Origin: Deltaproteobacteria bacterium
GTDB lineage: Bacteria > Desulfobacterota > Binatia > UTPRO1
DNA length: 64,000 nucleotides
Direction of reading: 5' to 3'
Assembly: GCA_029262315.1 (NCBI GenBank)
Contig: JAJCZP010000260.1
Location: 1,980-65,979 of the forward strand
Shown here: piece by piece, positions 15,000-18,904 of the stretch
How the letters are laid out: each line of letters opens with the position of its first letter
How positions within the stretch are numbered: the first letter of the stretch is position 1
The notes under the pieces: generated by a model
What the model saw: the letters and a program-made list of their open reading frames with translations, nothing else
Told to the model about the DNA's origin: nothing
The model's database searches: none
Position numbers and translations under genes: made by a program

Positions 15000-16487
15000 T
15001 CAATCCAGGCCGAAAACCGTATCGGTCAGGTCCCCGGCAACCGACAGCGCCGAATCGCCAACGCACCCTACCGAGAACTCAGGATCGAACAGACAGCCAT
15101 CCAGCCCCGTCGTCGAACCACACTTCTGGATGACGCCGTCGACCTTGTCCTTCAGCTTGGCGAGCGCCTCGGCGTGCTCGGTCGCACAATCGACAGCCAC
15201 GGCTGCGGTGATGTTGTCGAGTTCGCAGCGCCCGAGAATCTTCAGTCCCTTGGCGATGGCCTTGCCGCTTTGCTTCAACAACTGACGCTGACACGAAACC
15301 GTCTTCCCAGCGATGACATTCGCGGGCAGATCGGGTGGCGCGGTGCCGAGCGCGGCCGTCAGGGTAGCATCACGCCCCTCGTCCTGGCGGCACACGAGGC
15401 AATCGACGAGGCCCTCGTACGTGTTAGTCTGAATGGCGCCGCACCCGCCCCCACACACATCGGGATACCCGATAAACGAAGGCGACAGGTTGTTCCCGTC
15501 GCAGCGACGATCCTTCGCACCGCCTATCCGCTCGCGCAGCTTCGCTTCGGCGTTCTCGATCTTCAGGTCGCGTCGGGCCGTATCGCAGGCCACGCCCTGC
15601 ACCTCATCGAGGTAGCAACGGTTCCACTCTTTCGAATGCCTCTTGGCGAAGCGTTGAAAGTTCTTGTCGATCTCGCGGAAACAGGTGGACCGGTTTTCGG
15701 CGGATGCCAGCGGCGTTACGACGCCAAACGCCTGAATCGGTACGTCGATGATCGGCTCGTCCGGATCATCCGACACGATGCGGAAATCGTCGTTCAGGAA
15801 GACGAAACCGGCCGGCGTGAATTGGATCTCGACAATGATGCTCGAGTTGATGGGAATCGTGACCGGCAGCGCTGGTCCGCTTACGGCAAGCTCGGGATCG
15901 GTCCCATCGACCAGCCCGTACGACGTCACCTCCAGCGGCACCGAGCTTCCGTTGTTGAAGATCTCGATCCCCGCCGTCGCAAGCTCCCCAGCTTCTCCAA
16001 TGATCGAAAGGTCCGTCGGAGCGACACGGATGTCGTGCGGCACGAGACACGACGCCACCATCGGCGTGATGAACGTGTGCCAGTCGCTCGGCGCACCGTT
16101 GGCCAGCAGGAAGTTGCTGCACGAATATCCCGGCAACGTGAGGTAGGTCATGATCTCATCGCCGTTCGTGAAACCGTCGCTGTCGCTGTCGTCGCCCTCG
16201 ATGTCCAGCAACGACTGCGTCACCGTCTTACCGAGATAGAGCTGCTGCTCCACGGCACCGCCGAACTGATTGCGCGCGCCCGTCCCGGTCCACTTGATGT
16301 GACACACACCACACGCGTTCAAGTTGTCACTGCCACCGATCCCGTAGAGGGTCGTGAACGCATCGAAATAGGTCGGCCGTGCGTGCGCCATCGAAACTGT
16401 CAGAATGAGAGCACCGACGGCGCACCCCGCCAACGCGATCCGCCGCGCCAAAGGCACTCTCGCCGTCGCGCTCATCGTCGTACTCAT
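15000..16487 (-). CDS. Secreted monoheme c-type cytochrome with a DxDxDG Ca-binding loop, a beta-sandwich region and a C-terminal ~225-aa Cys-rich module
   Basis: Signal peptide; one CxxCH (CGVCH); DSDSDGFTNGDE. The C-terminal module is homologous to those in the two upstream genes. Its start overlaps the upstream stop (ATGA). Confidence 0.75.
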   Translation of the reverse strand: MSTTMSATARVPLARRIALAGCAVGALILTVSMAHARPTYFDAFTTLYGIGGSDNLNACGVCHIKWTGTGARNQFGGAVEQQLYLGKTVTQSLLDIEGDDSDSDGFTNGDEIMTYLTLPGYSCSNFLLANGAPSDWHTFITPMVASCLVPHDIRVAPTDLSIIGEAGELATAGIEIFNNGSSVPLEVTSYGLVDGTDPELAVSGPALPVTIPINSSIIVEIQFTPAGFVFLNDDFRIVSDDPDEPIIDVPIQAFGVVTPLASAENRSTCFREIDKNFQRFAKRHSKEWNRCYLDEVQGVACDTARRDLKIENAEAKLRERIGGAKDRRCDGNNLSPSFIGYPDVCGGGCGAIQTNTYEGLVDCLVCRQDEGRDATLTAALGTAPPDLPANVIAGKTVSCQRQLLKQSGKAIAKGLKILGRCELDNITAAVAVDCATEHAEALAKLKDKVDGVIQKCGSTTGLDGCLFDPEFSVGCVGDSALSVAGDLTDTVFGLD

Positions 16488-18904
16488 GGGTACACCACCC
16501 TCGTGTGCTCATCCACAATGTCGCCGATCGCCGCCTCCATACACGCCTGCGTGGTCGGAGCATCGCCACCGATCGCGCACCCCTGGAGACCGCCGAAGTC
16601 CGTACAACGCGCGATCTTGTTGCCGGCCTTGGTCATCGCTTTCGCTATCTTCCCGTCCGGATCGGTCGAGCAATCGAGCGCCGGATTGTTCTTGCCACTC
16701 GCGTTCGCCTGCTCACAACGATCGAGCGCCTTGGTCCAACCGAGAGCCAGACTGCTCGCAGCTTTCGAGAGCGTGCGCTGGCACGTAAGGGCGCTGGCCG
16801 GCAGGCCCCCCGGAACATCTGGCGGCGCGGCCCCGTACGCCGAGTCCAACGCTGCCGCGTCGAGGGCGTCGGCCATACAAATGGCGCAACTCGCAAGATC
16901 CGCCATTTCGAACAGCAGAATGCCGCTGCACGGCGCTGGGCACACGGCATCGTGGCCGAGTGAACCCGGGGTCAAGCTTCGACCGGCACATTTCCGATCC
17001 TTCAAGCCACCGATCTTGTCACGAAGCTTGGCCGCGGCGGCCGCGATCTTCTCATCACGTCCTCCGTCGTCGCACGTGAGGCCTTTGGTCTCGGTGTCGA
17101 AGCAGCGCGTCCACTCCTTGAGGTGACGCTTGCGGTACTTCGCCTGCTGCCGCGCGAGATCCTTGCGGCACCCGTTCACGATCTTGGCGTCCGACTCGAC
17201 GAAGAGGTTCGCCATCTCGACCGGAAGCGATTTGTTGTGCTGCTCCCAGAGATCGAACAGGATGTTGCCGGCCGCGTTCGTGGTGTTCTCGTCCCGCAGA
17301 AACTCGATGTATTCGCGCGATGCCGTTTGGTAGTAGAGCGTCACTTCCGCCTGCACCGCCTCCGGACCCACAGGGTAGACGACGTCGTCCCAGTACTGAC
17401 CGTCGGCGTACGCTTGCCCGACCGGCTCACCATCGAAAGCGTCGAACGCCGCGTTGGTGAACCCGCGGGGCGGGATCCGGTTGTCGAAGAACCGCTTGTT
17501 GTTCAGCACCACATGAAAACTGTTGCCTTCCGGCACACCGGTCGCGGCAGCGGCCGCGGCCGTCAAACCGTAGTCGGCTCTCCAGATGTGCAGATCAGGA
17601 TCATGGCCGGGATCGTTCGGATCGAGACCGGCGCCCTCGATCGTCGAGGTCGCGAAGACATAGCGACCCGATTCGAAGACGACGTTCCGACTGGCGTCGA
17701 GCGCACGCACGTGCAACCACATGCGCCGCCCCTCGGGATACCCCGTGGGAAGCTTGTGGCCGCTCTCGTTCGTGACGCGCACCGTGAGGTTGCCACCCGA
17801 AAAATCGGCGGAGACGCTCGCGGCCTTGCGCAGCATCTTGGTTGCTTCGACGATGCCATCATTCAGGATGTCGGCATCGACTTCAGCGCCGAACGCGGGA
17901 TGATGCGGCAAGACGGCAGGGATGAAGGTATTCCCTCCCACCATCGTATGCAGCGGGATATCGTCCCGGACGAGTCCGACGTTGGCGTCACGCCCAGTGA
18001 CATCGGGAAAGTGGCAGTCCTGACAACTAGAGACGACGTCCTTGTTGCCACCGAACTGGGGCGCGAACACTCCTGTCGCGGCGTACTCGCTTTCCTTCCA
18101 TTCGTCGTACGTAGATTGCTCGGGAAAACCGAGCGCGGGATCGCCAGGGGCATCGAGTGCATTGAAATCGTACTCGTCGGTGATGGCGTTGTACGTATAG
18201 GTGGGGATCCGAACGTTGTGACACGTCCCGCATAGATCGGAACTCTCGTGGAACGGCGAGATCAACACCGAGCGATCTGGCAGGTGCGGATCGGAGCCGA
18301 GATCGCCGATAATGTCGAACGGTCCGCGCATGCGATCCAACGGATCGATCACGAACATCGCATCCGCCAGGACCGGCACTGGCTCCGCAAGGCCGGCCAA
18401 GATTGCAACGTCCTCGGCCGGATGCCCTGGCGCACCGAACGGGTCGACCATGCGGTGACACACGCCGCACTGCACTCCGTGGCGGTCGTCGGCCGTCATC
18501 ATGCTGCCGTCCGTGGCGGCTGATCTGCCCTCGAGCCACCCCTTGGGGAGATGGCATCGCAGGCAGGTCTCGCCGGACTTGCTGGCGTCCTGATTGGCAA
18601 TGGCAAGCCCCGCCCACATCAGCGGGTCGCGACCTGCCTGCGCCATCATTGAACCCTCCCAATTGCGCCATGGCTCAACGTCAGGCTGGCCATAGTCGGC
18701 ATGGCAGGGAGTACAGGTATCGGGTGTTGGTATGTCGTCTGTAATCGTCAGCGGCTGCGTTCCGGGTAACCGGAAGTCGTTGGTCGTCGTCGCCAGCGGG
18801 AGCTGTGCCCGCGCCGGCACGATCGAAACGAGGAACAGCATGGGGAGTGCCAGAAGCACTCCCCATGCCGACCGTATACCCAGTCCGAGTCGCAGTTCGA
18901 TCAT
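16484..18904 (-). CDS. Secreted pentaheme c-type cytochrome with a C-terminal Cys-rich module
   Basis: Signal peptide. Five CxxCH motifs: CTPCH, CLRCH, CGVCH, CGTCH, CQDCH. C-terminal 230 aa are homologous to the C-terminus of gene 15000..16487. Confidence 0.85.
   Translation of the reverse strand: [806 protein letters not shown]

Follow-up and report, generated by a model that had tools for sequence, protein, structure and literature searches.

A widespread pentaheme cytochrome family with a conserved tyrosine in its immunoglobulin-like stem, a probable relative of LPC c552 and MccSep

What does a five-heme cytochrome do with some 500 residues that carry no heme? The question is raised by a gene on contig JAJCZP010000260.1 of a Deltaproteobacteria bacterium (assembly GCA_029262315.1; GTDB lineage Bacteria; Desulfobacterota; Binatia; UTPRO1), in a stretch of 64,000 nucleotides (positions 1,980 to 65,979 of the forward strand) that is called the window here and whose own numbering is used throughout. 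An earlier note on this DNA had described five CxxCH sites in the first ~300 amino acids (aa) of the product, then a ~280-aa heme-free region and a Cys-rich module, and had suggested that the heme-free region might be a substrate-binding or catalytic domain. The product is, with high confidence, a Sec-exported pentaheme c-type cytochrome of the superfamily of the low-potential cytochrome LPC c552 (PDB 5ZE8; Photosynth Res 139:281, 2019, as cited in PMC13510729) and MccSep/ExtKL. Its heme-free middle region is an immunoglobulin (Ig)-like stem, enlarged by ~60 residues of insertions, and a lineage-specific disulfide-rich helical domain is added after cap and stem. Whether this stem is the working part of a redox centre, as comparison with MccSep would suggest, appears to us evenly balanced.

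The open reading frame (ORF) at 16484..18904 on the minus strand comprises 806 codons plus the stop codon at 16484-16486, as given by the ORF list and its translation. That it is a real gene is shown by a database search with the full protein, which at E <= 0.001 found more than 4,464 homologues, the majority of them full length (~800 aa). CxxCH motifs lie at residues 64-68, 114-118, 146-150, 225-229 and 294-298 (18701-18715, 18551-18565, 18455-18469, 18218-18232 and 18011-18025, minus strand) and nowhere else in the 806 aa, where the Cys and His content of the protein would lead one to expect 0.019 such motifs by chance. An alignment of 61 homologues shows all five to be invariant. The first Cys beyond these motifs is residue 579; residues 299-578 contain none, and neither do residues 230-293, between the motifs of hemes 4 and 5. 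Five hemes are packed into ~265 aa and followed by ~500 heme-free residues. The layout given in the earlier note was therefore right, with the heme sites at residues 64-298, the heme-free region at 299-578 and a 14-Cys part at 573-806, and the 15-aa motif that it had singled out in the heme-free region is found at residues 382-396. Its remark that the architecture is unlike the compact NrfB/MtrA type (c7/c3) is also borne out by the ~500 heme-free residues, against ~30-40 aa per heme without extra domains in the compact proteins. The strand and the signal peptide had been left unstated. Residues 1-33 (18806..18904, minus) read as a Sec-type signal peptide with a predicted cleavage site after ARA (...VPARA/QL), that is, after residue 33.

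An AlphaFold2 (AF2) model was built on the 61-sequence alignment; it had a predicted local distance difference test score (pLDDT) of 89.6 and a predicted template modelling score of 0.88, with pLDDT below 50 for residues 1-33. Residues 34-343 (17876..18805, minus) form a five-heme cap domain of loops and short helices, the typical architecture of a multiheme domain, and its fold matches 5ZE8. The Pfam match to Cytochrome_C7 is local (residues 108-156, 29.1 bits). The features of the superfamily, an alpha-helical five-heme cap and then an Ig-like beta-sandwich stem, are both present and in the same mutual arrangement.

MccSep/ExtKL of Geobacter sulfurreducens (GSU2937-2936; PDB 9WT8) is a multiheme selenoprotein polysulfide reductase (PMC13510729). 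Neither the cytochrome sequence nor the profile of its family gave a significant result by itself in PDB sequence searches, and profile-profile comparison was needed for the link to MccSep. In the PDB profile search residues 362-403 matched MccSep weakly, over the MccSep stretch VKVEMTNHAGHSIPDGUPTPNRLV. MccSep sequences were collected at 76 loci through a DNA pattern across the UGA codon, and 46 full-length proteins were rebuilt by UGA read-through. When the close-family alignment was compared with these 46 sequences by hhalign, residues 9-560 aligned with MccSep residues 3-444 at 98.0% probability (E 2e-13), and a more diverse profile of the wider family reached 98.7% (E 1.7e-16). Both runs pair the five CxxCH motifs one to one, in order, with those of MccSep hemes 1-5. 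Three loci (L012, L017 and L044) hold MccSep homologues in longer frames (525-695 aa against the usual 450), which may be N-terminal extensions or start-codon artefacts.

The stem loops of the three families can be compared directly: H383-KL-P-T-G-Y-P390 in the cytochrome studied here, H-SI-P-D-G-U-P in MccSep and H-AM-P-T-G-A-P in LPC. A phmmer search of the PDB with one MccSep sequence found 5ZE8 at E 4.6e-4, this H-x-x-P-x-G-x-P loop included. LPC has been termed unrelated to MccSep in overall sequence and structure (PMC13510729). Despite that view, since MccSep matches 5ZE8 and the Tyr-type family matches both, LPC c552, MccSep and the Tyr-type family appear to be one superfamily.

We then consider the heme-free middle region. 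A linker helix (residues 344-361) and the enlarged beta-sandwich stem (362-572) are encoded at 17189..17875 (minus). The AF2 model shows residues 362-570 as a beta-sandwich into which four helices are inserted, and pLDDT is ~90 across the middle region. Searches of residues 300-580 against Pfam and NCBIfam returned nothing beyond a weak local match to ExtKL (NF040886; residues 368-419, 18.8 bits against a cut-off of 250, E 4.8e-4). The signature loop, N379 to residue 396 (17717..17770, minus), was located by the PDB profile alignment to 9wt8, the ExtKL match and hhalign; it lies early in the Ig-like domain, between the second and third strands, where pLDDT is locally lower (75). Its pattern, N..GHKLP[ST]GYPEGRR[MI]W, is nearly unchanged across the family, down to 37% identity. 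Residue 389 is Tyr in 120/120 close homologues, and among 122 motif-bearing representatives it is Tyr in 118, Phe in three and Asp in one. In the wider family, at 37-57% overall identity, K384, E391, R393, R394, H319 and H383 are at least 97% conserved. Two family-specific insertion motifs in the beta-sandwich, F463-H464 and D474-N-R-I-P-P-x-G481 (17462..17518, minus), are conserved to the same degree, except for H464 at 94%, and this region falls into a gap or a poorly aligned part of the two hhalign comparisons with MccSep.

The main argument that the Ig-like domain is functional, not a spacer, is that polar residues which are not heme ligands are so constrained. The suggestion of a substrate-binding or catalytic middle domain held in so far as the region is structured and strongly conserved; it did not hold as a new catalytic fold, the region being the Ig-like stem of a known superfamily. 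Disorder, which the earlier note had named as an outcome that would count against it, does not apply to a confidently modelled beta-sandwich. A match to a generic Ig-like spacer, the other such outcome, applies in part: the region is indeed an Ig-like beta-sandwich, but it is the conserved partner domain of LPC c552 and MccSep. With its confident fold and near-invariant loop, the middle region was rejected both as a disordered linker and as a generic Ig spacer.

The conserved positions can be set against those of the MccSep active site. MccSep combines a five-heme cap with an Ig-like stem; heme 2 is held by His122/Cys239, and the other four hemes (1, 3, 4 and 5) have bis-His ligation (PMC13510729). 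Its Ig-like domain forms the active site, with Sec325 (selenocysteine) reaching from this domain to 3.6 A from the Cys239 sulfur, and Arg83 touches a sulfate at the entrance of the active-site channel (PMC13510729). Most activity is lost when U325 is changed to Cys (U325C) or C239 to His (C239H) (PMC13510729). A homotetramer with its substrate channel running between cap and stem counts among the marks of the MccSep family; the model of the cytochrome is that of a single chain. In the PDB profile alignment and in hhalign, MccSep U325 corresponds to Y389 and H319 to H383, and hhalign pairs the invariant MccSep H271 with H319 of the cytochrome. Arg92 (18629..18631, minus) is the hhalign counterpart of MccSep Arg83; it is invariant among the 61 close homologues and present in 43/49 sequences of the wider-family alignment (query included). 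Judged by eye from the motif spacing, R394 probably corresponds to the invariant MccSep R330. In S85-M86-M87 (18644..18652, minus), M87 aligns with MccSep His74, a residue present in 46/46 MccSep sequences; the same wider-family alignment has M87 in 48/49 and M86 in 45/49. M87 is a candidate axial ligand that would give a His/Met heme. The residue at the selenocysteine position is family-specific, with Sec/Cys in MccSep, Ala in LPC and Tyr here, and the Sec/Cys polysulfide chemistry of MccSep is excluded for the Tyr-type cytochrome. The catalytic features that define MccSep are absent, while its architecture survives together with part of its pocket.

Behind the stem, residues 573-806 (16487..17188, minus) form an all-helical, disulfide-rich module of two similar halves. 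It contains 14 Cys at residues 579-788, of which 12 are invariant and two are at least 90% conserved in the family, enough for seven predicted disulfides. The module has no Pfam or NCBIfam match, and its structural likeness is limited to generic helical bundles such as PhoU-like ones. A homology search with the module alone returned nine fragments of the same family, by a word-index method that may have missed relatives. The module recurs in all three proteins of the operon described below (16487-17188, 15003-15725 and 19950-20849, minus): that of the cytochrome matches the C-terminus of the downstream protein at 38% identity (E 2e-42) and, weakly, the N-terminal repeats of the upstream protein (E 1e-7). 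Because all three operon products carry it, a role in docking or anchoring is suggested.

On the minus strand, three tightly spaced genes form an operon with the cytochrome gene in the middle. The upstream gene (18909..20849, minus; 646 aa), with its stop codon 4 nt ahead of the cytochrome start, encodes a signal peptide, a Cys-rich helical region (~38-282) and a right-handed beta-helix (~290-620). Its product matches Pfam Beta_helix and NosD, and TIGR03805 with 128.5 bits (E 2.7e-37), below the cut-off of 141.5. For its AF2 model (pLDDT 87.4) Foldseek ranks alginate epimerases, PL6 lyases and polygalacturonases highest (E ~1e-7, ~13% identity), matches that are generic to glycan-active beta-helices. 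The start of the downstream gene (15000..16487, minus; 495 aa) and the stop of the cytochrome gene share 4 nt (ATGA). The downstream product carries a signal peptide, a single CGVCH heme site, an Ig-like domain and the C-terminal Cys-rich helical module. Its ORF and that of the cytochrome are the only two in the window with a CxxCH motif. After CGVCH the downstream protein has a conserved W-x-GTG-x-RN...VEQ-x-LY, and it has a Ca-binding-type motif, DxDxDGF-x-N-x-DE; its domain matches are weak (Temptin_C, GEGP-diheme, and choice-of-anchor-D for the Ig domain). Inspection of five orthologues by eye revealed no conserved His or Met candidate for the sixth ligand of its heme, and PDB sequence searches with both partner proteins found no match.

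The gene order beta-helix, cytochrome, ~490-aa monoheme protein is kept in four otherwise different genomic neighbourhoods. On the same contigs the cytochrome is more conserved than its beta-helix partner (75% versus 55% and 67% versus 50%). A promoter and terminator scan found no sigma-70-like site or convincing terminator at the operon ends. The G+C content is 0.61-0.63 at 16001-22000, over the operon and the region upstream of it, against 0.66-0.69 in flanking housekeeping genes, which may reflect secreted-protein composition or foreign origin. Divergent from the operon, at 21156-21938 on the plus strand, is a gene for a LolA-like/TP_0789-like lipoprotein-sorting protein; this arrangement recurs in a second genome (L001, 5091-5873) and is not seen in the other three neighbourhoods. 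The operon is adjoined at 21994-27334 (minus) by genes for a sulfatase and a class I methyltransferase and by an ORF of 994 aa, which matches a PTPS-related membrane-protein domain only weakly (18.6 bits, below the cut-off of 26.4). One of the other neighbourhoods, L079, has genes for an FGE-sulfatase and a DsbA-like protein close to the trio.

How far the family extends was examined at two levels. The best 120 homologues of the full protein are 56-100% identical, nearly all ~800 aa long, and labelled only 'hypothetical' or 'multiheme c-type cytochrome'; the named homologues are mostly from Candidatus Binatia, with others from Eisenbacteria, Myxococcota and Thermodesulfobacteriota. With residues 290-590 alone as the query, 1,655 clusters were found among all cluster representatives, 256 of them below 1e-30, with proteins of 600-1,700 aa. 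The more distant members stand alone, without beta-helix or monoheme partners. Among them are fusions to GSDH (P0195, P0233), lysyl oxidase (P0248), CBM96 plus fn3 (P0163) and Por_Secre_tail (P0127, at L084 7001-9973), and one, P0197, has 14 CxxCH motifs. Dockerin, PKD and Ig-like domains and type IX secretion system (T9SS) sorting tails also occur in relatives. These domains point to an extracytoplasmic location, often at the cell surface, and the T9SS tails suggest that some members come from Bacteroidota-like organisms. Literature searches on the loop motif, on Binatia multiheme proteins, on SO_2930/2931 and on T9SS cytochromes returned nothing useful.

The reading in which the stem works as part of the redox centre can be put in mechanistic terms. 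The stem loop H383-K-L-P-T-G-Y389-P would reach back into the cap, with H383 as an axial heme ligand and Y389 facing heme 2 on its distal side, the place taken in MccSep by the catalytic selenocysteine. With no counterpart to the Cys ligand of MccSep, heme 2 would either be open or have the Tyr as a cap or cross-linked partner, and heme 2, Tyr389 and Arg92 could form a small-molecule site. Electrons would run through the branched five-heme chain, one heme of which is probably His/Met-ligated (M87) and hence of higher potential, to or from the co-transcribed monoheme protein, and the three operon proteins may be held together or anchored via their common disulfide-rich helical modules. Catalysis by the Tyr-type cytochrome is suggested by sequence comparison. 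A bolder form of the proposal seems to us unlikely, if worth stating: a new class of multiheme enzyme with a Tyr-based site at heme 2 (His/Tyr ligation, an HAO-like Tyr-heme cross-link or a Tyr/Arg acid-base pocket), which would carry out an extracytoplasmic redox reaction as part of a complex of three proteins joined by a disulfide-stapled helical docking module that all three share and that has not been described before.

Several points weigh against a working stem. Y389, H383, M87 and H464 are placed at hemes solely through homology to MccSep, and the PTQCC loop of MccSep, which provides its Cys ligand, aligns differently in the two hhalign runs, as a gap or a poor stretch. The closest structural relative, LPC c552, has Ala at the position of Y389 and no known catalysis, so the ancestral role may be plain electron transfer. 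The conserved residues M87, H207, H219, H319, H383 and H464 would be enough for five six-coordinate hemes. Members of the wider family occur without both partner genes, which makes the trio a subfamily feature.

These points lead to the main rival, an ordinary electron-transfer role, which is quite possible and which we would place somewhat behind an even chance. In such a cytochrome, as in LPC c552, all hemes would be six-coordinate, the Ig-like domain would give one axial His and support, Tyr389 would merely pack, and electrons would be shuttled in the periplasm or at the cell surface, for example via the monoheme protein. LPC c552 is the closest solved structure and no catalytic function has been reported for it; there are six conserved His/Met candidates for the five distal positions, and neither CxxCK nor another known catalytic heme motif is present. 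Relatives fused to GSDH, a dehydrogenase domain of the pyrroloquinoline quinone (PQQ) type, or to a lysyl oxidase domain would suit a cytochrome acting as a relay. A carrier of this kind does not readily explain why the residue at the selenocysteine position is fixed within families yet differs between them, as is typical of a specificity or catalytic site, why the family keeps Arg92, which corresponds to the Arg that contacts sulfate in MccSep, or why the non-ligand polar residues K384, E391, R393, R394, D474, N475 and R476 are at least 97% conserved. A second proposal, by analogy, takes the beta-helix partner as its starting point: the protein would bind or cleave an extracellular or periplasmic polymer such as a polysaccharide, and the pentaheme and monoheme proteins would move the electrons, much as the cytochrome domains of cellobiose dehydrogenase and PQQ-dehydrogenases feed oxidative glycan enzymes. 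The nearest folds of the beta-helix (alginate epimerases, PL6 lyases, polygalacturonases), the CBM96, dockerin, PKD, fn3, T9SS and GSDH parts in the wider family, and the signal peptides and many disulfide Cys of all three operon proteins agree with such a polymer machine. The beta-helix matches are generic, however, and in the four neighbourhoods no glycan-active enzyme, lytic polysaccharide monooxygenase or transporter is conserved beside the trio; we consider this proposal improbable.

Two enzymatic identities can be set aside with more assurance. A distant NrfA, octaheme nitrite reductase (ONR), HAO or MccA-type enzyme with a new catalytic or substrate-binding middle domain takes up the comparison with octaheme/HAO/MccA-type enzymes raised by the earlier note, and it draws on a weak match of residues 109-151 to an octaheme nitrite reductase (PDB phmmer, E 0.45) and to Pfam Cytochrom_C552 (PF02335, 12.9 bits against a cut-off of 24.1); the five hemes of MccSep also superimpose on the core hemes of MccA (PMC13510729). 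Against it, no significant match in sequence or fold was found, the Ig-like domain is foreign to those enzymes, and the 806-aa sequence contains no CxxCK active-site heme motif. Membership of the NrfA, octaheme nitrite reductase, HAO, MccA or OTR families was rejected, the protein being below the Pfam cut-off, without CxxCK and without the eight hemes and the fold, and the kinship itself is very improbable. An MccSep orthologue, a polysulfide or selenite reductase of sulfur respiration, would account for homology over the whole length of MccSep, the shared five-heme and Ig-like architecture and the weak ExtKL match. It is contradicted at the position of Sec325, where the catalytic Sec/Cys is replaced by Tyr, at Cys239, which has no counterpart, and by an ExtKL score of 18.8 bits against 250; this identity was rejected as well and is the least credible of all those considered.

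MccSep, published in 2026, showed that a pentaheme plus Ig-like architecture can be an enzyme with a catalytic residue supplied by the Ig-like domain. The Tyr-type family is a much larger, unnamed sister family of MccSep, frequent in Candidatus Binatia and in further lineages of soil and sediment. With Tyr fixed at the catalytic position and the architecture and Arg kept, it offers a hypothesis that can be tested by mutation for abundant 'hypothetical multiheme cytochromes'; if the protein is a plain electron carrier, the result is an ordinary one. The superfamily itself is known, and what is new here is the Tyr-type variant with its added disulfide-rich helical module and dedicated operon.

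Set beside known systems, the cytochrome differs from each of them in definable ways. LPC c552 of Thermochromatium tepidum (5ZE8) is a protein of 385-435 aa with Ala at the position of Tyr389 (PHAMPTGAP) and His ('SMH') where the cytochrome has Met87; it lacks ~150-200 residues of insertions and the C-terminal disulfide-rich helical domain. MccSep has in common with the cytochrome a T-N-x-x-G-H-x-x-P-x-G-[U/Y]-P loop in the stem, which here too would face heme 2, but likewise lacks the enlarged stem with its family-specific motifs and the 234-aa helical domain. Its heme 2 ligand Cys239 has no counterpart here, since residues 230-293 contain no Cys, and its His114 and His181 are not conserved in the cytochrome. 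The neighbourhoods also differ, with no ext cluster and no selenocysteine insertion sequence (SECIS) or UGA at the locus described here. PtdA, compared by description only, has a porin and tetra- and deca-heme proteins encoded alongside it, whereas the partners here are a beta-helix and a monoheme protein. Tyr, His and Arg serve in the NrfA pocket, and HAO has a Tyr cross-link. The likeness to NrfA, HAO, MccA and OTR is one of concept, a multiheme chain that ends in a heme with an unusual distal environment.

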